Positions 41,379-64,000 of a stretch of 64,000 nucleotides of DNA are shown piece after piece. This stretch comes from Pseudomonadota bacterium (GTDB lineage Bacteria; Pseudomonadota; Gammaproteobacteria; Enterobacterales; Permianibacteraceae): the NCBI GenBank assembly GCA_049324755.1, contig JBMOMZ010000067.1, positions 1,280 through 65,279 of the forward strand, given 5' to 3'. The stretch's first letter is position 1. Every line of letters begins with the position of its first letter. The position numbers and the translations under genes were made by a program. Below the pieces are notes generated by a model that saw only the letters and a list, made by a program, of their open reading frames with translations, made no database searches and was not told the DNA's origin.

Positions 41379-42086
41379 TCAATCGACCGGCCGGGTATGG
41401 ACGATGTAATTGACATCGACACCGGGGCCGAGCGAGTAGACCTTGGTCAGCGGGTTGTAGTGCATGCCGATCATGTCGCCGACGCGCAGGCCGGCATGGC
41501 GGGCCCAGGTGCCGAGCTCCGAAGGCCGAATGAATTTGGCATATTCGTGGGTGCCTTTCGGCAGCAGGTTCAGAATGTATTCGGCGCCGACAATGGCAAA
41601 CAGAAACGCTTTCGGGTTGCGATTGATGGTCGAGAAGAATACGTGCCCGTTTGGTTTCACCAGCTTGGCACAAGCCGCGATGACTGACGCCGGGTCCGGC
41701 ACATGCTCGATCATTTCCATACAGGTGACGACATCGAAACGGCCCGGCTGCTCATCGGCCAGTTGCTCGACGGTCATCTGCCGGTAATCGACGCTGCGAC
41801 CGCTTTCAAGCAGGTGCAATTTGGCGACCGACAGCGGTGCTTCGCCCATGTCGATGCCGGTCACCTGCGCGCCTTCACCGGCCAGCGCTTCGCTCAGGAT
41901 GCCGCCACCGCAGCCGACGTCGACCACGCGCTTGCCGGCGAGTGGTCCGGTTTTCTGCAGAATCCAGCCGAGACGCAGCGGGTTGATGTCATGCAGCGGT
42001 TTGAATTCGCTGTGCCGATCCCACCAGCGGGCGGCAAGCGCTTCGAATTTGGCGATTTCGGCGCGGTCGACATTGGTGTGGGTCAT
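41379..42086 (-). CDS. ubiG: bifunctional 3-demethylubiquinol 3-O-methyltransferase / 2-polyprenyl-6-hydroxyphenol methylase
   Basis: 235 aa with a SAM motif ([15 protein letters not shown]), [10 protein letters not shown] and the typical N-terminal [14 protein letters not shown]. Confidence 0.95.
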
Positions 42087-56076: not shown

Positions 56077-56178
56077 CATGGTTTGCCAGTTTCCTGGCGT
56101 GTCAGAAAATTTTCCAAATTTTTAAGGACTTTGCTATAGTCGCGGCCGGTTTAGCCACGGCGATTGGAGAGGGCACGG

Positions 56179-57636
56179 ATGTCCACCTTAGCGTGCAGCA
56201 CCTTGCTGCCAGTCATTTTGTCCGGCGGAGCGGGTACAAGGCTTTGGCCATTGTCCCGCGAGATGTACCCCAAGCAGCTGTTGCCTCTGGTCGGTGAGCA
56301 CAGCTTGGTGCAACAAACCGTTCAGCGAATTCAACACAGCGACTGGCCGGTACAGGTAGCCGAGCCCTTGATTATCGCCAATCAGGAACATCGTTTCCTG
56401 ATCGCCGAACAATGCCGGGCCGTAGGTGTCTCCGCGCGCATTGTTCTGGAGCCGATTGGCCGCAATACCGCGCCGGCGATGACAGCGGCAGCGATGTTGG
56501 CGGGCGAAGGCAGCGACGGTTTGCTGCTGGTCATGCCGGCTGACCACATCATCAAGGACAGCAAGGCGTTTCAGCAGGCGGTAGCCAAAGCCATTCCGGT
56601 GGCACAGGCTGGCGCCATCGTGACGTTCGGCATTGTGCCGACCGAACCGCACACCGGCTATGGCTATCTGCGCACCGGCAAACCGGTGGCAGACGGCGTG
56701 GTGGCGCTTGATGCGTTTGTCGAAAAGCCCAGTCGCGAACGTGCCACGCAATTTCTGCAGCAGGGTGGTTACTTCTGGAACGGCGGCATTTTCCTGGTGC
56801 GCGCGGATGTCTGGCTGCGTTGCGTGGAGGCGCTGCAGCCGGCGATGTTGCAAGCCTGCCGTGACGCATGCAGCAAGGCGAGTCATGACCTGGATTTTGT
56901 CAGGTTGGACAAGGCGGCCTTTGAGCAATCGCCATCCGACTCGATTGATTACGCCGTGATGGAGCGATTGCCGGAGATCAGCAACGGCCCCGCCGCCGCC
57001 GTGGTACCGCTACAAGCGGGGTGGTCCGATTTGGGGTCCTGGCCTTCCGTAGCCGAGCAATTGCCTGCTGACGAAAACGGCAATCGGACCCGCGGCGATG
57101 TCGTCAGCATTCAATCACAAAACAATCTGGCGCTCGCCGAGCGACGCATGATTGCACTGGTTGGCGTTGAGAACCTGATTGTGGTGGAGACCGCTGACGC
57201 CGTGTTGGTGGCGGACAGTCGCCACGCACAAGCGGTCAAAGATGTGGTGCAGCATCTCAACAAGCTCGGCCGTGACGAGGCGTTGACTCATCGCCGTGTC
57301 TATCGGCCCTGGGGCAACTATGAAGGCATTGATGAAGGCCCGCGCTTTCAAGTCAAGCGTATCACGGTCAACCCCGGCGCTTCCTTGTCGTTACAGATGC
57401 ATTACCACCGTGCCGAGCACTGGATTGTTGTGACCGGCACCGCAGAAGTGACCTGTGGTGAGGAAACTTTCCTGCTGACCGAGAACCAATCGACGTTCAT
57501 TCCGCTCGGAAAGACGCATCGGTTATGCAATCCCGGAAAGGTTCCGTTGGAAATGATAGAGGTTCAATCCGGTGCCTATCTGGGAGAGGACGATATTGTC
57601 CGGTTTTCGGATGTCTATGGCAGACAAGCAACATAA
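56179..57636 (+). CDS. manC: mannose-1-phosphate guanylyltransferase / mannose-6-phosphate isomerase (type II PMI-GMP)
   Basis: Trimmed to ATG 56179. Motifs ILSGGAGTRLWPLSR, GYGYL and FVEKP, with a C-terminal cupin (LSLQMHYHRAEHWIVVTGTAEV). Confidence 0.9.
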   Translation: MSTLACSTLLPVILSGGAGTRLWPLSREMYPKQLLPLVGEHSLVQQTVQRIQHSDWPVQVAEPLIIANQEHRFLIAEQCRAVGVSARIVLEPIGRNTAPAMTAAAMLAGEGSDGLLLVMPADHIIKDSKAFQQAVAKAIPVAQAGAIVTFGIVPTEPHTGYGYLRTGKPVADGVVALDAFVEKPSRERATQFLQQGGYFWNGGIFLVRADVWLRCVEALQPAMLQACRDACSKASHDLDFVRLDKAAFEQSPSDSIDYAVMERLPEISNGPAAAVVPLQAGWSDLGSWPSVAEQLPADENGNRTRGDVVSIQSQNNLALAERRMIALVGVENLIVVETADAVLVADSRHAQAVKDVVQHLNKLGRDEALTHRRVYRPWGNYEGIDEGPRFQVKRITVNPGASLSLQMHYHRAEHWIVVTGTAEVTCGEETFLLTENQSTFIPLGKTHRLCNPGKVPLEMIEVQSGAYLGEDDIVRFSDVYGRQAT

Positions 57637-57652: not shown

Positions 57653-58759
57653 ATGGCGCTGATATTCTTGGTTGCAGGCGCGCGACCAAATTTCATGAAG
57701 ATTGCTCCGATTGTTCGTGCACTCGAGGAACGCTCCGACCGATTCCGGTATCGGATTGTTCACACCGGCCAACATTTTGATCATGAAATGAGCGATGTTT
57801 TTTTTGAAGAACTCGGTATTCCCACTCCGGACTACCATCTCGGCTGTGGTGGCGGCAGTCACGCTCAGCAGACTGCCAAGATTATGGTGGCTTTCGAAGA
57901 AACCTGTCAGAAAGAACGACCGGACTGTGTGCTAGTTGTCGGCGATGTCAACTCCACGCTGGCCTGTTCGATCGTCGCAAAGAAAATGGGGATTCGTGTA
58001 GCGCATGTTGAGGCGGGTTTGCGCAGTGGCGACATGAGTATGCCGGAAGAGATTAACCGGCTAGTCACAGACTCAATTTCAGATTGGTTTTTTGTCACCG
58101 AACCGTCCGGATATGAAAACCTGATAAAAGAGGGAAAGTCGCCTGACGTCGTTTTCGATGTTGGCCACGTTATGATCGACAACTTGCTGTACCAACATAA
58201 AAAGCTTGAGCAAACCGATAAGTCACAATTCATCAGTGAGCCCATCAAGAAACAGCTAGGTCGATATGGCGTTGTTACACTTCATCGGCCATCTAATGTT
58301 GATGATGCCGTCGTTTTTTTGCGCATCATGACAGCACTGAATACTGTTGCTGAGTCAATTTCGCTCGTATTCCCCGTGCATCCGCGAACGCGGCAGATGA
58401 TTGAAAAGTGTGGGATTACGCCTCACCAGAATATCCTGCTTACGAAGCCCCTATCCTATATGGATTTTTTAAATCTCTGGAAGGATGCAGTTGTCGTGAT
58501 GACCGATAGTGGAGGTTTGCAAGAGGAAACTACGGGATTAGGTGTGCCGTGCTTAACGCTTCGAGAAAATACCGAACGGCCAGTCACGGTAGAGCAGGGC
58601 TCAAATGTTTTGGTGGGTACGAGCACACATATGATTGTTGATGCGGCATTTATGACCCTGGTTGGTGGAGGCAAGACCGGAAGGAGGCCTGCCCTGTGGG
58701 ACGGTGCGGCTTCTAGGAGGATTGTAGGTCGATTATCAGATTTATTTTCACAATGCTGA
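57653..58759 (+). CDS. wecB: UDP-N-acetylglucosamine 2-epimerase (non-hydrolysing)
   Basis: Motifs GARPNFMKIAP, VVGDVNSTLA, HVEAGLRS, PEEINR and DSGGLQEETT. The drop in GC begins here. Confidence 0.9.
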   Translation: MALIFLVAGARPNFMKIAPIVRALEERSDRFRYRIVHTGQHFDHEMSDVFFEELGIPTPDYHLGCGGGSHAQQTAKIMVAFEETCQKERPDCVLVVGDVNSTLACSIVAKKMGIRVAHVEAGLRSGDMSMPEEINRLVTDSISDWFFVTEPSGYENLIKEGKSPDVVFDVGHVMIDNLLYQHKKLEQTDKSQFISEPIKKQLGRYGVVTLHRPSNVDDAVVFLRIMTALNTVAESISLVFPVHPRTRQMIEKCGITPHQNILLTKPLSYMDFLNLWKDAVVVMTDSGGLQEETTGLGVPCLTLRENTERPVTVEQGSNVLVGTSTHMIVDAAFMTLVGGGKTGRRPALWDGAASRRIVGRLSDLFSQC

Positions 58760-59156: not shown

Positions 59157-59975
59157 ATGCGAACTTTTTCTGCGAAGCCGACGGCGCTGTTTCAATGCAT
59201 ATGGCGGAATCGCTCATTAATAGCTGCTTCAGCGAGACGAGAGGTTGTCGGTCGCTATCAAGGCTCGATATTCGGATTGCTCTGGTCGTTTTTCAATCCT
59301 CTTTTGATGTTGGCTGTTTATACTTTCGTGTTCACCGAAGTCTTCAAGGCGAGGTGGAGTTCGAATGGGTATGTGAAGGTTGAATTTGCTTTGGTACTGT
59401 TTGCGGGGTTGATTGTCTTCAATATATTCTCGGAATGCATTAATAGGGCACCTAATCTGATACTTGCTAATCCAAATTATGTAAAGAAGGTTGTGTTCCC
59501 GCTTGAGGTTTTGCCAGTAATAATTTTGATATCCTCACTGTACCATGCGTTGGTTGGTATGTTTGTTTGGTTTGTTGCATACATCATTTTTGTAGGTATG
59601 CCAAACTGGTCCGCTGTACTGTTGCCGCTATTGCTTCTTCCTTTTTCATTATTTGTGCTGGGTCTGAGTTGGATCCTTGCTTCGCTGGGGGTTTTTCTTC
59701 GTGATGTATCACAGTTTGTGGCGGTCATAACGACGGTTTTGCTTTTCATGAGTCCGATATTCTATCCGGTAAACGCTTTGCCAGAAATATACCACGGTAT
59801 CGTATATTTCAATCCAATCACGCCGATTGTGGAAATGGTTCGCGAAATTCTCTACTGGGGAATTTGGGTGAGAGTAGAGGTGATCGCTGGTTACTGGCTA
59901 TTCTGCATGCTAATCGCATGGATTGGATTTGCGTGGTTTCAAAAAACTCGTAAGGGATTCGCAGATGTCCTTTGA
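59157..59975 (+). CDS. wzm: O-polysaccharide ABC transporter permease (ABC-2 type, Wzm)
   Basis: 272 aa. The N-terminus IWRNRSLIAASARREVVGRYQGSIFGLLWSFFNPLLM is typical of Wzm/TagG/KpsM, followed by six hydrophobic segments. Confidence 0.85.
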   Translation: MRTFSAKPTALFQCIWRNRSLIAASARREVVGRYQGSIFGLLWSFFNPLLMLAVYTFVFTEVFKARWSSNGYVKVEFALVLFAGLIVFNIFSECINRAPNLILANPNYVKKVVFPLEVLPVIILISSLYHALVGMFVWFVAYIIFVGMPNWSAVLLPLLLLPFSLFVLGLSWILASLGVFLRDVSQFVAVITTVLLFMSPIFYPVNALPEIYHGIVYFNPITPIVEMVREILYWGIWVRVEVIAGYWLFCMLIAWIGFAWFQKTRKGFADVL

Positions 59976-61353
59976 AACGGCGATAATGGTAAGTGGCGTA
60001 AGTAAGTGCTTCAACATCTATGAATCACCTCGTGATCGATTGAAACAGTTTATCTTTCCCCGGTTGCAACAGGTTTTATCGCTAGAAAAGAAAAAGTATT
60101 TCAGAGAGTTTTGGGCGCTTAAAAGTGTTTCGTTCGACGTGTTCAGAGGCGAAACAGTTGGCATCATAGGTCGGAACGGTAGCGGCAAATCCACACTATT
60201 GCAGATCATTTGTGACACGCTGAGTCCATCGGAAGGGGCTGTTTCTGTGAGAGGCAGGGTCGCTGCCTTGTTGGAGCTGGGGTCTGGTTTCAATCCCGAG
60301 TTTTCGGGGATGGAGAATATCCGTATCAACGCAGCAGTGTTGGGGTTGTCTGACGATCAAATATCTGAGCGACTGGATCGGATCATTTCTTTCTCTGAAA
60401 TTGGGCAATTTATTCACCAGCCTGTGAAGACTTATTCAAGTGGAATGATGGTGAGATTGGCATTTTCAGTCGCTATCAATGTCGACCCCGATATCCTTGT
60501 GATTGATGAAGCTCTTTCGGTAGGTGACGAGCGTTTTCAACGAAAATGTTTGTCAAAAATTGAGTCATTGAAGCGAGATGGGGCAACAATCCTGTTCGTA
60601 TCGCACTCTGGCGCCCAGATTGTGGAATTGTGCGACCGCGCAGTGCTATTAGACAGCGGTCGTCTATTAATGGTTGGACCGCCGAAAGATGCCATAAAGG
60701 AGTATCAAAGGCTTCTGTATTCCCCTGAGTCAGAAAGGGAAAACATACGGAATAGGCTTTTGAGTAAAAAAACGGGGACATCAAATTTTGTTGATGTTAA
60801 TTACTCTTTTTCCGAGGTCGAAACCGCTGCTGATAATCGCGGGGAATCTGAAGAAAGGGAAACATTTGACCCCACATTTGTTTCCACCAGTGAAGTCATT
60901 TTTGAGTCACATGGACCGGTTATTTCGCCACCGGTCATATTGACATTGAGTGGTGAGCAGGTAAACGGGCTCGTTAGGGGGCGAAGATATCGAGTTAGAT
61001 ACTCGGTTTCTTTTTGTCGTTCAGCGAGTAATGTCAGATTTGGTATGTCTTTTAGAACTGCAACTGGCGTTGCAATAAGTGGTGTCTTGTCGTCGCCCTC
61101 ACTATTGGAGTCTATACCTGCAGTTAGGGAGGGGGCGATTGCAAATGTGACATTTGAGTTTTCTTGCCGCCTCAATACGGGCGTCTATTTCCTTAATGTA
61201 GGAGTCTTTGGTTGTGTTGGTGAAGAGGAGGTGGTTCTGCATCGTCGTGCAGAGACCATTGTATTTAGGGTGCTTCCTGTTCAGAGAAACATCGTAACCG
61301 AAGCGGTATGCTTTGAGTATCAGCCGTTAATAGAGTTATTCCAAGATGAGTAA
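59965..61353 (+). CDS. wzt: O-polysaccharide ABC transporter ATP-binding protein Wzt with C-terminal carbohydrate-binding-type domain
   Basis: ATG 59965 overlaps the wzm end by 11 nt. Walker A GRNGSGKST, signature YSSGMMVRLAF, Walker B ILVIDEALSVGD. About 215 extra C-terminal residues form beta-rich sequence (RYRVRYSVSF...GVYFLNVGVF...IVFRVLP). Confidence 0.85.
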   Translation: MSFETAIMVSGVSKCFNIYESPRDRLKQFIFPRLQQVLSLEKKKYFREFWALKSVSFDVFRGETVGIIGRNGSGKSTLLQIICDTLSPSEGAVSVRGRVAALLELGSGFNPEFSGMENIRINAAVLGLSDDQISERLDRIISFSEIGQFIHQPVKTYSSGMMVRLAFSVAINVDPDILVIDEALSVGDERFQRKCLSKIESLKRDGATILFVSHSGAQIVELCDRAVLLDSGRLLMVGPPKDAIKEYQRLLYSPESERENIRNRLLSKKTGTSNFVDVNYSFSEVETAADNRGESEERETFDPTFVSTSEVIFESHGPVISPPVILTLSGEQVNGLVRGRRYRVRYSVSFCRSASNVRFGMSFRTATGVAISGVLSSPSLLESIPAVREGAIANVTFEFSCRLNTGVYFLNVGVFGCVGEEEVVLHRRAETIVFRVLPVQRNIVTEAVCFEYQPLIELFQDE

Positions 61354-64000
61354 TAGATTGCTTGTGTCGTCGCCAAATGGCGGTGGGATTTTCCTGATAG
61401 ACCGTGGCGTTATTTATCGGATTGATGCCAGGAGTGCGACGGGGTTATATGTTTCTTCTAAAGCGCTACTGCGTTGCTTTCAGCCTAGTTCATTGACGTT
61501 TCTAGATAGATATTCTGAGTCTACCGTATTGTCCCATGTGGTAGATGGAGTTGATGATATCCATGACGTTACGTTGCTTGATTCATTCGTATATGTTGTC
61601 AGCACCGGGAAAAATCAAATCATAAAACTCAATCTTCAAGGTGAGGAGAGTCAGCGGTGGGTTTTTCCTGGCGAACCCGATTCCTGGCACATTAACAGTA
61701 TAACTTGCTGGAACGGGCGGATAATTTTCTCCGCCTTCGCTGATGTTCGCAGGCATCGAGGGTATAAGGGCGCAAGTGATGGTGCCGGTTTCGTGCAGGA
61801 TTTGCTATCTGGGGAAAGGATTATCAAGGGGCTATCGCAACCCCATAGCTTGACTCCATTTAATGGAAATCTGTTGATTGCAAACTCAGAAAAGAAAGAG
61901 GTTTTGTGCTTTTCTCCGTCTACGGAATTGTTGTGGAGGATGAGATTTGATGGCTATGTTAGAGGAATTGCAGTATCCGAAGATTCTCTCTATGTCGGTT
62001 TGAGTCGCTCTCGTAATATTGATGATGCGGGGCTTCAATCGGCACAAATTGTTGAAGTTGGTTTGGAGGATTTTTGCGAGCGTTGGCGTTCTGACATACC
62101 AGCTAACGAGATTTACGATATTAGAGTAATTCCGCCAGAGGCGGATCTGGTTGCTCTGTTGTCTAGCACGACCGCAGATTCTGTCAGCTATTGTGTTTCC
62201 GAGAATGAATCCGCTAACCGACTTGTTGAAGAGCGTATTGTGTGGGCGCAGTCAATGGAGTCCGAGCTGCAGGCCGCGCGCGGGTTGGTAGAAGAACGAA
62301 CGCTTTGGGCGCAGTCGCTGGAGTCCGAGTTGCAGGCCGCGCGCGGGTTAGTGGAAGAACGAACTGCTTGGGCACAGTCATTGGAATCTGAAGTAAAGAG
62401 TATAGGGAAACTGCTGGAAGAGCGTACTGCGTGGGCGCAGTCGCTGGAGTCCGAGTTGCAGGTGGTTCGCGGGTTGGTAGAAGAGCGAACGGTTTGGGCG
62501 CAGTCATTGGAATCCGAAGTAAAAAGCACAGTGCATCTGCTGGAAGAGCGTACTGCGTGGGCTCAGTCGCTGGAGTCTGCTCTGAAGGCAGCTCAGGAAT
62601 TGATTAGAGACAAAGATGCTTTGGCTGACTCCTTAAATGCTGTGATTGCCGAGCAAACAAGAGCTGCTAGACAGCTTGAGCATGCGCTCGCCGAGCGTGA
62701 TCAGTTAGTACATAGTCTTTATGCCTCTAGGTCTTGGCGCATTACGCAGCCATTACGTAATATTCGGCATTATGCTTCTAAGGCAACGTATCTACTACGG
62801 AAATTGCCAAATGGGTTCAAGTATCTTGCTCGTCGTGATTTTTCTGGATTCCTTGGTCGTTTAAAGGCTATTAGACGGGATAGTGCGTTCTATCAAGTTG
62901 CAAATCAAACGTATGAGCAGAAAGTAGGGTTGCGTTGGGGCGTCATCGCTACTCGCCACACAGCATTCATAGGACATTTAGTCAAATCTCGATTGCAAAA
63001 ACACGGCTGGTCAGTTGATTTGTTTTTTACTGAGCAACAGCAGTACGACCATGACTTTTATGTCGTGATATGTCCGCAAATGTTCAAATCTCTTCCCCCT
63101 GGAGAGAAAAGAATTTCTTTTCAAATGGAGCAATCCGTTAGTTCGCGTTGGTTTACATCTGATTATTTGGATGTGCTAAATAACTCGCTTGCTGTTCTGG
63201 AGTATTCACTCAAGAATATTGAGTTCCTTAGCGAGAAGGGAATTGCTTACCCGCATGTCCACTACTTGCCTGTTGGCGCAGATCCTTCATATATCAAAAG
63301 TGGTAAAAAAATAGATAAAAAATATGACGTTCTTTTCTATGGAGATGCCAATAGCTCGGCTCGTCGAAGAGAGCTTCTAAAAGTCCTTCGAGAAAATTTT
63401 CAGGTAAAGATTTGTAGTGAAGTTTTTGGCGAAGAAATGACAGAGGAAATTCGCCAGGCAAAGGTTGTCGTGAATTTGCACTACTACGAAAACGCCCTAC
63501 TCGAAATGCCACGCATCCAAGAGTGTATATCGTTGGGCGTGCCGGTCATATCAGAGTCTTCTCAGGACCAGTCCGACTATCCAGAAATCTTGGGGGCCGT
63601 TAGATTCTTTGCTCAGGGCGATACAAACGGAATGATCGAAACCGTTAGAAAGTGTCTTGAAAGCCCTATTCCTGAGAATGAGGTTTCTCGGTCTGCTATT
63701 CTAGGCTCAGAGCGGTTCGCGTTTATGTTTGACCGTTTCTTGGTCGCTATGGGGTATTTATCATCAAACAAACTAGCTGTGGATGGCTTACCCTTGCCAG
63801 TAGATGTGAAAAGAGTCGCACTATCAATGCCTGAGACTATCGCTCGACGAAGGATATTCGAGGCTAATCGTCCATTGAATTGTGCCGTTTTCGATGGTGT
63901 GAGGCTTCGTCCTGGCTGGGTTGGGTGCGGGCTTTCCTATGCAAATCTCGCGCGGCATGCATTGAAAAACAAGTTGAGTAGACTTACTGTTCTTGAGGAT
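61346..64000 (+). CDS. multidomain O-antigen biosynthesis protein: DUF4915/TIGR03032-like domain, repeat coiled coil, GT-B-like domain, GT25 domain (3' end outside the window)
   Basis: My own translation from ATG 61346 (overlapping the wzt stop, ATGAGTAA) is open for 885 codons to nt 64000. It is not in the ORF track because it has no stop. Motifs are listed in the findings. Confidence 0.8.
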   Translation, partial: MSNRLLVSSPNGGGIFLIDRGVIYRIDARSATGLYVSSKALLRCFQPSSLTFLDRYSESTVLSHVVDGVDDIHDVTLLDSFVYVVSTGKNQIIKLNLQGEESQRWVFPGEPDSWHINSITCWNGRIIFSAFADVRRHRGYKGASDGAGFVQDLLSGERIIKGLSQPHSLTPFNGNLLIANSEKKEVLCFSPSTELLWRMRFDGYVRGIAVSEDSLYVGLSRSRNIDDAGLQSAQIVEVGLEDFCERWRSDIPANEIYDIRVIPPEADLVALLSSTTADSVSYCVSENESANRLVEERIVWAQSMESELQAARGLVEERTLWAQSLESELQAARGLVEERTAWAQSLESEVKSIGKLLEERTAWAQSLESELQVVRGLVEERTVWAQSLESEVKSTVHLLEERTAWAQSLESALKAAQELIRDKDALADSLNAVIAEQTRAARQLEHALAERDQLVHSLYASRSWRITQPLRNIRHYASKATYLLRKLPNGFKYLARRDFSGFLGRLKAIRRDSAFYQVANQTYEQKVGLRWGVIATRHTAFIGHLVKSRLQKHGWSVDLFFTEQQQYDHDFYVVICPQMFKSLPPGEKRISFQMEQSVSSRWFTSDYLDVLNNSLAVLEYSLKNIEFLSEKGIAYPHVHYLPVGADPSYIKSGKKIDKKYDVLFYGDANSSARRRELLKVLRENFQVKICSEVFGEEMTEEIRQAKVVVNLHYYENALLEMPRIQECISLGVPVISESSQDQSDYPEILGAVRFFAQGDTNGMIETVRKCLESPIPENEVSRSAILGSERFAFMFDRFLVAMGYLSSNKLAVDGLPLPVDVKRVALSMPETIARRRIFEANRPLNCAVFDGVRLRPGWVGCGLSYANLARHALKNKLSRLTVLED
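62222..62599 (+). repeat. six in-frame tandem 63-bp (21-aa) repeats encoding coiled coil
   Basis: Units at 62222, 62285, 62348, 62411, 62474 and 62537 encode L[VL]EER[IT]xWAQS[LM]ES[EA][LV].... They are exact multiples of three heptads. Confidence 0.9.

Follow-up and report, generated by a model that had tools for sequence, protein, structure and literature searches.

The window, by which we mean the whole 64,000-nt stretch of DNA analyzed, ends in genes for a glycan ABC exporter and its sugar precursors, all on the plus strand. Precursor supply is represented by manC (nt 56164 to 57636), encoding a GDP-mannose pyrophosphorylase/mannose-6-phosphate isomerase (TIGR01479, 660.9 bits, above the cutoff; Pfam NTP_transferase and MannoseP_isomer), and by a wecB-type UDP-GlcNAc 2-epimerase gene (nt 57653 to 58759; PF02350, 358 bits; TIGR00236, 301 bits). 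The ABC-2 permease of the exporter is encoded by wzm (nt 59157 to 59975; PF01061, 100.9 bits), and its ATPase is encoded by wzt (nt 59923 to 61353, with an uncertain start codon; PF00005, 77.9 bits). Wzt carries a C-terminal carbohydrate-binding module (CBM) of the Wzt_C type at amino acids 327 to 455 (about nt 60901 to 61287; PF14524, 73.1 bits). These profile matches confirm the neighbors named in an initial annotation of this DNA, which had been made from the letters alone. We found no genes for APS kinase, CysD/N, or sulfotransferases in the window.

The gene that we analyzed (nt 61346 to 64000, plus strand) begins at an ATG within the wzt stop region, ATGAGTAA, giving an 8-nt overlap, and frame 1 then continues for 885 sense codons with zero stops up to the window edge, as first reported. 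The database protein P0001 is 100% identical across all 885 amino acids and has a total length of 1038 amino acids. Thus, the full-length product is 1038 amino acids long, and a single gene ends approximately 460 nt beyond the window, with no frameshift or early stop. The protein had been called giant, which does not hold, as 1038 amino acids is an ordinary size for such proteins. We propose that it joins a chain terminator, a molecular ruler, and a polymerase.

Domains of the 1038-residue protein

The N-terminal domain (amino acids 1 to 267; nt 61346 to 62146, plus strand) matches the DUF4915 profile PF16261 at amino acids 67 to 263 with 59.8 bits (E = 3.5e-16; cutoff, 35 bits), a match that spans only profile positions 94 to 308 of 316. 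Its TIGR03032 score is 46 bits, far below the cutoff of 251.5. We therefore class the domain as a divergent member of DUF4915 that falls outside the TIGR03032 equivalogs; of the two family names first given to it, DUF4915 stands and TIGR03032 is rejected. Canonical TIGR03032/DUF4915 proteins, which are about 335 amino acids long and of unknown function, share this Pfam family. The motif R-x-Y-K...G-L-S-Q-P-H-S...S-E defines the subfamily that we analyzed. DUF4915 is mentioned nowhere in the literature that we searched.

An AlphaFold2 (AF2) model of this domain (pLDDT, 92.7; pTM, 0.91) has 24 strands and predicts with high confidence that it is a six-bladed beta-propeller, the kind of fold that the initial annotation had in mind. 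Foldseek returned only generic six-bladed matches in the PDB, mostly nonenzymatic and YWTD type (TM about 0.65), and a search of PDB sequences gave as its sole enzyme match a weak, NHL-like one to the lyase PAL (E = 0.02). Among 36 homologs, 29 positions are invariant and are rich in His, Asp, Asn, Arg, Lys, and Glu. By topology, all of them are predicted to lie in D-to-A loops, at A-strand starts, or in B-to-C loops, which, given the strand order of the model, would place them on one face of the propeller, surrounding its central tunnel. Stand-alone propellers keep all 30 conserved positions at 32 to 39% identity, and 21 of these 30 are independent of the search pattern.

We asked whether the propeller might be noncatalytic, serving for oligomerization, as a scaffold, for docking (e.g., of Wzt), or as a lectin that sequesters the chain end, with termination achieved by other means or absent. 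The best structural matches, to ligand-binding YWTD, nidogen, and BtuG-type propellers, agree with such a role, and translational coupling to wzt would fit a stoichiometric partner. However, about 30 polar or charged residues are invariant on one face of proteins that are only 30 to 49% identical, this face is also found in stand-alone soluble forms that lack the coil and in some cases a nearby wzt, and the operon linkage with PAPS synthesis in Bacteroidota (see below) lacks obvious sense for a scaffold. We consider a noncatalytic propeller very unlikely.

The propeller is followed by a coiled coil of approximately 195 residues (amino acids 268 to 462; nt 62147 to 62731, plus strand), and the AF2 model begins a helix at amino acid 268. 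This segment contains no proline and has a hydrophobic periodicity of 3.50 residues (z about 21), with none at 3.6 residues. Within it are the six 21-residue repeats noted initially, which we could verify at amino acids 293 to 418 (nt 62222 to 62599, plus strand; starts at amino acids 293, 314, 335, 356, 377, and 398); the DNA itself repeats at nt 62243 to 62577 with a period of 63 nt and a superperiod of 126 nt. The equivalent segment measures 46 to 450 amino acids in 100 homologs. The coil ends in the junction motif SRSWRITQPLRN (amino acids 461 to 472; nt 62726 to 62761, plus strand), also noted initially, whose SWRxT core recurs in 100 of 180 long homologs regardless of the downstream set of glycosyltransferases (GTs).

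Two GT modules had been proposed for the remainder, and both are recovered as folds, with family profiles below their cutoffs. A GT-B, GT4-like module (amino acids about 530 to 802; nt 62933 to 63751, plus strand; pLDDT, 86.5) matches PimA (2gej; E = 5.6e-9), BshA, MshA, and a methylmannose-polysaccharide mannosyltransferase in Foldseek, while PF13524 reaches 22.9 bits against a cutoff of 25. A GT25-like GT-A module starts at about amino acid 823 (nt 63812 to 64000, plus strand, amino acids 823 to 885 being in the window) and extends to about amino acid 1010, past the window edge. It aligns to the GT25 domain of COLGALT1 through the EDD motif, and its fold matches COLGALT1 and a beta-1,4-galactosyltransferase; PF01755 gives 21.3 bits against a cutoff of 24. 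The family assignments of both modules thus apply at the level of predicted fold.

Terminator position and the Wzt CBM

The propeller is N-terminal in all examined carriers (about 95 homologs and 55 of 55 genome loci), and the GTs that follow the coil vary (GT2, GT4, GT25, and WbsX-like). Cultured carriers include Chitiniphilus shinanonensis DSM 23277, Pseudomonas putida (CP029693), and Luteimonas spp. Homologous coils elsewhere have a methyltransferase, or a sulfotransferase plus a methyltransferase, in the propeller's slot. A gene for Wzt lies immediately upstream on the same strand in 30 of the 32 long forms whose available upstream sequence is long enough (the exceptions are loci L014 and L045), commonly with an overlap of 4 or 8 nt. 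Where measured, this Wzt is at least 457 amino acids long and so has a C-terminal extension.

The CBM of the window is 44 to 49% identical to CBMs paired with DUF4915 in Chitiniphilus, Pseudomonas, Dickeya, Rhizobiaceae, and Nitrosospira system 2, which are unrelated taxa with differing GT sets, and to those of two stand-alone-propeller loci (L053 and L005). In contrast, its identity to the CBM of the Nitrosospira sulfotransferase/methyltransferase system is 30%, over 83 amino acids only. Judged by these identities, the Wzt CBM and the propeller are inherited together, and it is the GTs that vary. The Chitiniphilus and Luteimonas clusters, which are complete, contain no methyltransferase, and no terminator-type kinase or sulfotransferase is found within 10 kb on either side; by gene content, DUF4915 is the only terminator candidate there.

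This arrangement resembles known terminator-ruler systems. The WbbB protein of Klebsiella pneumoniae O12 and Raoultella terrigena, which combines a GT99 beta-Kdo terminator, a coiled coil, and a GT102-GT103 polymerase, likewise has an N-terminal domain in the terminator position, a coiled coil, and two C-terminal GT modules, and its locus also has wzm and wzt with a CBM (PMC11231755). The window protein differs in having a six-bladed propeller instead of GT99 and modules that are GT4-like and GT25-like by fold instead of GT102 and GT103, and a PDB search found none of the solved WbbB fragments to be similar to it in sequence. ORF6 of K. pneumoniae O7 (methyltransferase-kinase, coiled coil, and two GT2 modules) and WbdD of Escherichia coli O8/O9a (methyltransferase-kinase and coiled coil, recruiting the WbdA polymerase) carry a module that caps with a small group at the far end of their coiled-coil ruler, as we propose here. 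In contrast to both, the window protein has no kinase or methyltransferase domain, and its putative donor is PAPS instead of ATP or SAM. The window gene follows wzm and wzt, as wbdD does. Stand-alone coil versions in Dickeya (P0017) and Nitrosospira (P0097) parallel WbdD, and a homolog with a methyltransferase and DUF4915 ahead of the coil (P0169) parallels its methyltransferase-kinase pair. ORF7 of K. pneumoniae O4, a GT137 alpha-Kdo terminator with a previously unclassified fold and an attached coiled coil, is essential for export through a Wzt CBM. We rejected GT137 as the identity of DUF4915, since GT137 has a double beta/alpha/beta fold with a C-terminal coil whereas DUF4915 is all beta and N-terminal.

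The initial annotation was thus right about the architecture, and its proposal that DUF4915 is a capping module read by the Wzt CBM is supported by position, synteny, and CBM co-inheritance; from this comparative evidence, we think a capping role likely. The gene product is probably a one-chain machine for an ABC-exported glycan, most probably an O-polysaccharide. In this model, the two C-terminal GT modules would lie near the membrane and lengthen a lipid-linked chain in which two sugars alternate, and the coiled coil, as a putative rigid ruler, would keep propeller and polymerase a set distance apart. A growing nonreducing end that reached the propeller would be modified, elongation would stop, and the modified end would be the epitope that the Wzt CBM requires for export. 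Some relatives may add a second mark with a methyltransferase.

Sulfate activation genes and a possible chemistry of the proposed cap

No chemistry had been put forward for the cap, and the gene neighborhoods examined here newly point to sulfation. APS kinase genes occur at 14 of 60 loci. In five Bacteroidota loci, a stand-alone propeller gene lies directly 3' of cysD-cysNC, which encode PAPS synthesis. This is the gene logic of nodP-nodQ-nodH in rhizobia and raxP-raxQ-raxST in Xanthomonas, where cysD-like and cysNC-like PAPS synthesis genes are paired with the gene for a PAPS-consuming sulfotransferase, although NodH and RaxST are classical alpha/beta enzymes and DUF4915 is a propeller without their motifs. 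In two Kryptoniota loci, the propeller gene is directly 3' of an APS kinase open reading frame that is cut at the block end; only this upstream frame, and no cysD, was seen. In L041, L053, and L060, the order is wzm, an APS kinase gene, wzt-CBM, and then immediately the propeller gene; as far as L041 and L053 are sequenced, they contain no classical sulfotransferase. In Nitrosospira, DUF4915 takes the position that Sulfotransfer_2 holds in a sister system. Among motif-positive long forms, an APS kinase gene falls within the fetched block only for L001 (it also does for L059 and L060, which are motif negative), so sulfation by long forms would need housekeeping PAPS. We found no fusions of DUF4915 to APS kinase.

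Since stand-alone propellers with the same conserved residues lie beside PAPS genes, the propeller would most likely move a sulfuryl group from PAPS onto the terminal sugar, with the His/Asp/Arg/Lys-rich face at the central tunnel as the putative active site. We hold this chemistry tentatively, at somewhat below an even chance. The whole reading, a length-measuring polymerase whose product is capped through the propeller with sulfation as the likeliest chemistry, seems to us evenly balanced. On this reading, the DUF4915 propeller may represent a novel type of enzyme that adds sulfate.

A six-bladed propeller is capable of such chemistry, as the aryl sulfotransferase of E. coli (EcAST/ASST; PDB 3ELQ) has a catalytic domain of this fold, which transfers the sulfuryl group independently of PAPS through a sulfo-histidine in an active site of basic His and Arg residues (PMC13426309). 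It differs from DUF4915 in using an aryl sulfate donor and in having an extra beta-sandwich domain (PMC13426309). The profile search of PDB sequences detected no relationship between the two, and aryl sulfotransferase was also absent from the top 50 fold matches. EcAST is periplasmic.

We also considered that DUF4915 caps the chain by other chemistry, adding a sugar, an ulosonic acid such as Kdo, a phosphate, or another small group, with the PAPS linkage of stand-alone homologs reflecting a different or secondary role. Architecture, synteny, and CBM data fit this equally well, PAPS genes are seldom near long forms, one homolog (P0089) has a classical sulfotransferase domain alongside DUF4915, and the terminators GT99 and GT137, characterized earlier, proved to be GT families that were new and had unforeseen folds (PMC11231755). 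Against it, every conserved residue is common to stand-alone and fused forms, from which one chemistry is expected for both, and the stand-alone forms are tightly tied to PAPS synthesis (cysD-cysNC-DUF4915 and wzm-APSK-wzt-DUF4915), while nucleotide-sugar or Kdo pathway genes do not recur with DUF4915. To our knowledge, there are no Leloir glycosyltransferases of propeller fold. A nonsulfate cap is thus unlikely in our estimation.

DUF4915 could instead be an accessory to sulfation, either a metal-dependent hydrolase that removes inhibitory PAP (CysQ-like) or a binding module for the sulfated chain end, with capping by a separate classical sulfotransferase or methyltransferase. A PAP phosphatase would be equally plausible as the product of the gene that follows cysD-cysNC, many catalytic six-bladed propellers are metal-dependent hydrolases, the sole enzyme match in the PDB sequence search is the weak one to PAL, and a helper would suit both P0089 and Pseudomonas putida. 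However, no classical sulfotransferase was found in the Chitiniphilus and Luteimonas clusters, in the window, or in what is sequenced of L041 and L053, which would leave the helper without a partner and the ruler's distal tip without a terminator, and the CBM is co-inherited with the propeller rather than with any sulfotransferase. We regard an accessory role as improbable.

Two gene arrangements would be unexpected if DUF4915 is a sulfotransferase: in P0089, DUF4915 and a Sulfotransfer_2 domain sit together at the coil tip, and in the P. putida cluster, Sulfotransfer_3 is encoded by a gene of its own.

The proposed ruler gene and the domains of its product

The proposed ruler gene, on the plus strand at 61346-64000, had been described as an uninterrupted 885-codon open reading frame (ORF) that runs to the window edge and overlaps the wzt stop. 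We found that frame 1 is open for 885 codons, that the ATG at 61346 lies within the last codons of wzt, as ATGAGTAA, and that the overlap is 8 nt; the ORF was missed by the ORF track because the ORF listing omits frames running off the window. The concern that a stop or frameshift might lie just past the edge is settled by P0001, the database protein that matches this ORF, which comes from an NCBI metagenome-assembled Pseudomonadota genome, is 1038 aa long, and is 100% identical across all 885 window residues. According to P0001, the gene continues for 153 codons beyond the window and closes with a complete GT25-like module. Its neighbours are rpsA, lapB, pyrF, manC (56164-57636), a wecB-type epimerase gene (57653-58759), wzm (59157-59975; PF01061 in Pfam), and wzt (59923-61353; PF00005 and PF14524 in Pfam), the last with a Wzt_C carbohydrate-binding module (CBM). 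The longest wzt ORF opens at a TTG and overlaps wzm by 53 nt (59923-59975). Since wzm and wzt overlap by only ~10 nt in homologous loci, the true wzt start probably lies further downstream.

The N-terminal part of the protein had been assigned to the DUF4915/TIGR03032 family, of which the DUF4915 half stands. The score against PF16261 (DUF4915) is 59.8 bits (E=3.5e-16, aa 67-263 against profile positions 94-308 of 316; 59.4 bits with the full-length protein), above the gathering threshold of 35, whereas the NCBIfam hypothetical equivalog TIGR03032 gives 46.1 bits over aa 112-229 only, under its cutoff of 251.5. An AlphaFold2 model of aa 1-267, built on 36 homologs, is all-beta, and its 24 strands make a six-bladed propeller (pLDDT 92.7, pTM 0.91), in line with the beta-propeller-like N-domain that had been anticipated; a helix begins after the propeller, at residue 268. 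In Foldseek searches, the predicted fold matched generic YWTD, LRP6, nidogen, and BtuG propellers (TM ~0.65, 10-17% identity), and matches of this kind to a model say nothing about chemistry. When PDB sequences were searched, the sole enzyme found with the N-domain profile was the lyase PAL, through an insignificant NHL-like match, and the whole protein gave a weak match to GT25/COLGALT1; PPR matches in the PDB sequence search were spurious.

Across 36 sequences of 30-49% identity, 29 positions are invariant, and the conserved motifs of the propeller are PNxGG, Q46, DxHD, T..N, DSxHxN, F..RxYK, LSQPHS, SE, RG, GLSxSR, and ExY. With the strand order read as blades, every one of the 29 invariant positions is assigned to a D-to-A loop, an A-strand start, or a B-to-C loop, and so all of them would sit on the face that surrounds the central tunnel, a placement taken from strand order and not measured on coordinates. 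Catalytic propellers have their active sites on this face, and we consider it very unlikely that DUF4915 is non-catalytic.

The six 21-aa coiled-coil repeats predicted by the initial annotation are present within aa 268-462, a segment that has no proline and a hydrophobic periodicity of 3.50 residues (z ~21) that is absent at 3.6. This coil separates the propeller on one side from two glycosyltransferase (GT) folds on the other. At the DNA level, the repeats form a 63-nt tandem unit with a better-conserved 126-nt super-period (62243-62577), the repeat matches being 71% and 87%, respectively. The better match of the super-period indicates that 42-aa units have been duplicated recently, and ruler length, and presumably glycan length too, may therefore be evolving by repeat gain and loss. 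The coil ends in a junction motif (aa 461-472, nt 62726-62761, plus strand), SRSWRITQPLRN, whose SWRxT core is shared by 100 of 180 long homologs. In its extended form, S-x-S-W-R-x-T-x-P-L-R, the motif marks the coil end in these 100 proteins independently of the GT set behind it, and it may act as a conserved hinge or serve to bind the membrane or a partner. Homologs have between 46 and 450 aa from propeller to junction motif, a spread that a coil acting as an adjustable spacer would be expected to show.

Behind the coil, a GT-B-like domain followed by a GT25-type domain had been proposed, and both are recovered as folds although not as Pfam families. The model of aa ~530-1010 (pLDDT 86.5) contains one GT-B module and one GT-A module. 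In the fold search, the GT-B module resembles the GT4 enzymes PimA, BshA, MshA, and methylmannose-polysaccharide mannosyltransferase, and it matches the two-Rossmann GT-B fold (PimA 2gej, E=5.6e-9, TMt 0.52); a canonical EX7E motif was not evident in this module by inspection. The GT-A module resembles in fold the GT25 domain of COLGALT1 and a beta-1,4-galactosyltransferase, and its EDD motif aligns with FEDD of COLGALT1. Since PF13524 (Glyco_trans_1_2; 22.1-22.9 bits) and PF01755 (GT25; 21.3 bits) score under their cutoffs of 25 and 24 bits, respectively, the family assignments of both modules hold at fold level only.

Association of the propeller with Wzt and its CBM

A genome search with a pattern made from the invariant residues, confirmed on the window and on loci L001-L003, matched 55 species-representative genomes, among them Gamma-, Beta-, Alpha-, and Zetaproteobacteria, Bacteroidota, and Kryptoniota. 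Cultured carriers include Chitiniphilus shinanonensis DSM 23277, P. putida CP029693, Luteimonas spp., and Nitrosospira sp. Nsp1. When the profile search was run exhaustively, it returned ~4000 sequence clusters. The initial annotation had raised the question of whether DUF4915 genes generally co-occur with wzt-CBM, and for long forms, in which a coil follows the propeller, they do: a Wzt gene lies immediately upstream on the same strand in 30 of the 32 that have enough upstream DNA (loci L014 and L045 being the other two), and wherever its length was measured, this Wzt segment spans 457 aa or more. The order of wzt-CBM and then DUF4915, with no gene between, is seen in P. putida, Dickeya lacustris, Chitiniphilus, Luteimonas, Nitrosospira, and one metagenome contig, frequently with the same 8-nt overlap as in the window.

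Among 120 homologs, DUF4915 always starts at about residue 5 and is followed by the coil and then by a varying GT set, which can be GT2, GT4, GT25, or WbsX-like. The exact C-terminal half of the window protein is common to 14 homologs, and the Dickeya and Nitrosospira proteins consist of propeller and coil only, in which they resemble WbdD. A search with the coil region also found proteins with other content in the N-terminal slot: ahead of a homologous coil, P0104 has a methyltransferase and P0078 a sulfotransferase plus a methyltransferase, while the slot holds a methyltransferase and then DUF4915 in P0169 and DUF4915 and then a sulfotransferase in P0089. We also observed that DUF4915 and a WbsX-like module are joined in one chain in P0030, P0035, P0038, P0042, P0043, P0046, and other long forms, and that DUF4915, a 280-aa SAM methyltransferase (Methyltransf_23/MetW-like), and a WbsX-like protein (PF14307, GH99-like) form a conserved cassette (L005, 5327-7998; L009, 1463-4717; L041, 4854-7999; L053, 4996-7998; L063, 10001-15435).

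The window CBM is 44-49% identical to the DUF4915-adjacent CBMs of Chitiniphilus, several Pseudomonas, Dickeya, a Rhizobiaceae MAG, and the second of two Nitrosospira systems, and it is equally similar to the CBMs of L053 and L005, two loci with stand-alone propellers, which lack the coil. The GT sets differ among the loci whose CBMs resemble that of the window. With the CBM of the adjacent Nitrosospira system, which pairs Sulfotransfer_2 with an MT-coil-GT protein, the identity is 30% over 83 aa only. By these identities, the CBM appears to travel with the propeller and not with the polymerase. A sequence search found no solved CBM detectably similar to that of the window. The Chitiniphilus and Luteimonas clusters contain no methyltransferase, and no terminator-type kinase or sulfotransferase lies within 10 kb of them, so the propeller is the only terminator candidate there. 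Together, the modular architecture, the synteny, and the CBM co-inheritance argue, in agreement with the initial annotation, that DUF4915 probably makes a cap that is read by the Wzt CBM. In such a system the distal module would add a non-reducing terminal residue required for CBM binding and export, and the length of the coil would set the modal chain length; the shared inheritance of CBM and propeller and the variation in coil length lend this indirect support.

Nitrosospira sp. Nsp1 (L063, 1-15435) has two complete Wzt-CBM systems in tandem with one visible wzm ahead, the first with Sulfotransfer_2 plus the MT-coil-GT protein and the second with a DUF4915-coil protein plus acyltransferase, MT, and WbsX-like genes. 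As the two CBMs are only ~30% identical over 83 aa, this layout suggests that a single permease may serve two ATPases of different cap specificity, and this Nitrosospira would be expected to make two glycans. The D. lacustris locus (L002, 8515-12193) is a two-gene island of wzt-CBM and a gene for a 730-aa DUF4915-coil protein, flanked by amino-acid ABC transporter genes and by fis-dusB-prmA, and neither a wzm nor a glycosyltransferase gene lies close by. The island may be orphaned or a remnant, or it may serve a locus elsewhere in the genome. In L003 (3871-8615), toxin-antitoxin-like genes (Polbeta/HepT, NTase) are scattered among rml genes, and between wzm and wzt of a close homolog locus lies a DUF1016/YhcG nuclease-like gene.

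Comparison with characterised terminators

Termination by a coiled-coil ruler is the accepted route to a defined length and an export signal for ABC-transporter-dependent O-antigens and related glycans, and to our knowledge the characterised terminator chemistries are only a handful, namely, methyl, methyl-phosphate, beta-Kdo, and alpha-Kdo. The WbbB/WbdD-like ruler architecture first proposed for the window protein is upheld by the propeller, the coil with its 21-aa repeats, the two GT folds, and the adjoining wzm and wzt-CBM genes. A single chain would hold terminator, ruler, and polymerase, as it does in WbbB and in ORF6 of K. pneumoniae O7. The window protein shares with the WbdD/WbbB/ORF6-O7 class both a coil-separated distal module and a wzm/wzt-CBM locus, and it departs from that class in the identity of the distal enzyme. 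The distal propeller gave no match to the known capping families (methyltransferase, kinase, GT99, and GT137) in Pfam, PDB sequence, and fold searches, and there is a substantial chance that it represents a new enzyme class. Identity with GT137, the K. pneumoniae O4 terminator, was considered and rejected, as GT137 is beta/alpha/beta with a C-terminal coil whereas the propeller is all-beta and N-terminal. In the O4 system, deletion of orf7 abolishes export, and over-long und-PP-linked chains build up. In the literature searched, 8 million papers outside which lies the 2019 terminator survey (Mann, Kimber and Whitfield, Glycobiology), we found no mention of DUF4915 or TIGR03032 and none of a propeller linked to both Wzt and a coiled coil in a glycan-termination context.

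DUF4915 would add a widespread terminator-position module to the known set, and a Pfam DUF would gain a concrete, testable role. O-antigen loci would be annotated better, and the terminal epitopes that dominate recognition by antibodies and phages would become predictable; glycoengineering would gain new parts for defined-length chains.

Candidate chemistry of the propeller

Genes for APS kinase, the enzyme that makes PAPS, occur in 14 of the 60 loci retrieved and cluster around short stand-alone propellers. In five Bacteroidota loci, cysD, cysNC, and DUF4915 lie on one strand with unrelated genes beyond, a gene logic like that of nodPQ-nodH and raxPQ-raxST, in which a cysD-like gene and a cysNC-like gene are followed by a PAPS consumer. 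In two Kryptoniota loci, the propeller gene comes immediately after an APS-kinase ORF that is truncated in the sequence retrieved. In Methylophilaceae L041 (2813-3461), Pseudomonadota MAG L053 (2936-3623), and L060 (5953-6498), an APS kinase gene sits inside the exporter operon, with wzm on one side and wzt-CBM, immediately followed by the propeller gene, on the other; judged by gene content, it would be a dedicated PAPS supply for an ABC-transporter-dependent glycan. The other operon genes in L041 and L053 encode a methyltransferase and a WbsX-like protein, and no classical sulfotransferase was found in the sequenced part of either locus. Stand-alone homologs include those of Deefgea chitinilytica and Zestomonas insulae. 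At 32-39% identity, none of the 30 conserved positions is lost in the stand-alone proteins, and the search pattern had not imposed 21 of these positions. A single chemistry should therefore be common to the fused and the stand-alone forms. We tentatively propose, from the linkage to cysD, cysNC, and APS kinase only, that DUF4915 may carry out PAPS-dependent sulfuryl transfer.

Classical PAPS-dependent sulfotransferases carry 5'-PSB and 3'-PB motifs on an alpha/beta fold, and DUF4915 cannot belong to that family because its fold is not the classical one. EcAST, a PAPS-independent aryl sulfotransferase, is a six-bladed propeller that transfers sulfuryl groups via a histidine (PMC13426309), and DUF4915 shares with it only the general six-blade fold class. 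A likeness to ASST or EcAST, including the environment of the catalytic His436, was found neither up to E=10 in the PDB profile search nor among the top 50 Foldseek matches. If sulfation is true, the propeller would be a new sulfotransferase fold class, and its product would be a new glycan export signal.

Several observations count against sulfation. A search of the window for cys and sulfotransferase genes found none, the sole match being an unrelated methyltransferase gene at 41577-41936. PAPS genes are rarely near long forms, classical sulfotransferases are also present in P0089 and in the P. putida cluster, and none of the 66 relatives examined of a stand-alone member is a DUF4915-APS kinase fusion. 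We consider it unlikely that DUF4915 caps by another chemistry and quite unlikely that it has an accessory role, such as PAP hydrolysis. Under the sulfation proposal, to which we give somewhat less than even confidence as a whole, ruler-fused propellers would cap ABC-exported glycans with a terminal sulfate (plus methyl in some lineages) that is read as an export signal by a dedicated Wzt CBM subfamily, and the stand-alone copies in Bacteroidota cysD-cysNC operons and behind APS kinase in Kryptoniota would sulfate other substrates.

The propeller module is not restricted to O-antigen or CBM systems, since L059 (1-20935), the contig of P0169, is a capsule-type locus in which the 1644-aa MT-DUF4915 protein, also with a DUF4214 domain, is encoded. 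The L059 transporter is KpsM/KpsT-like, without a CBM, and the locus also holds KpsC/KpsS-like Capsule_synth genes, Poly_export, an APS kinase, a sulfatase, and a large polyketide synthase.
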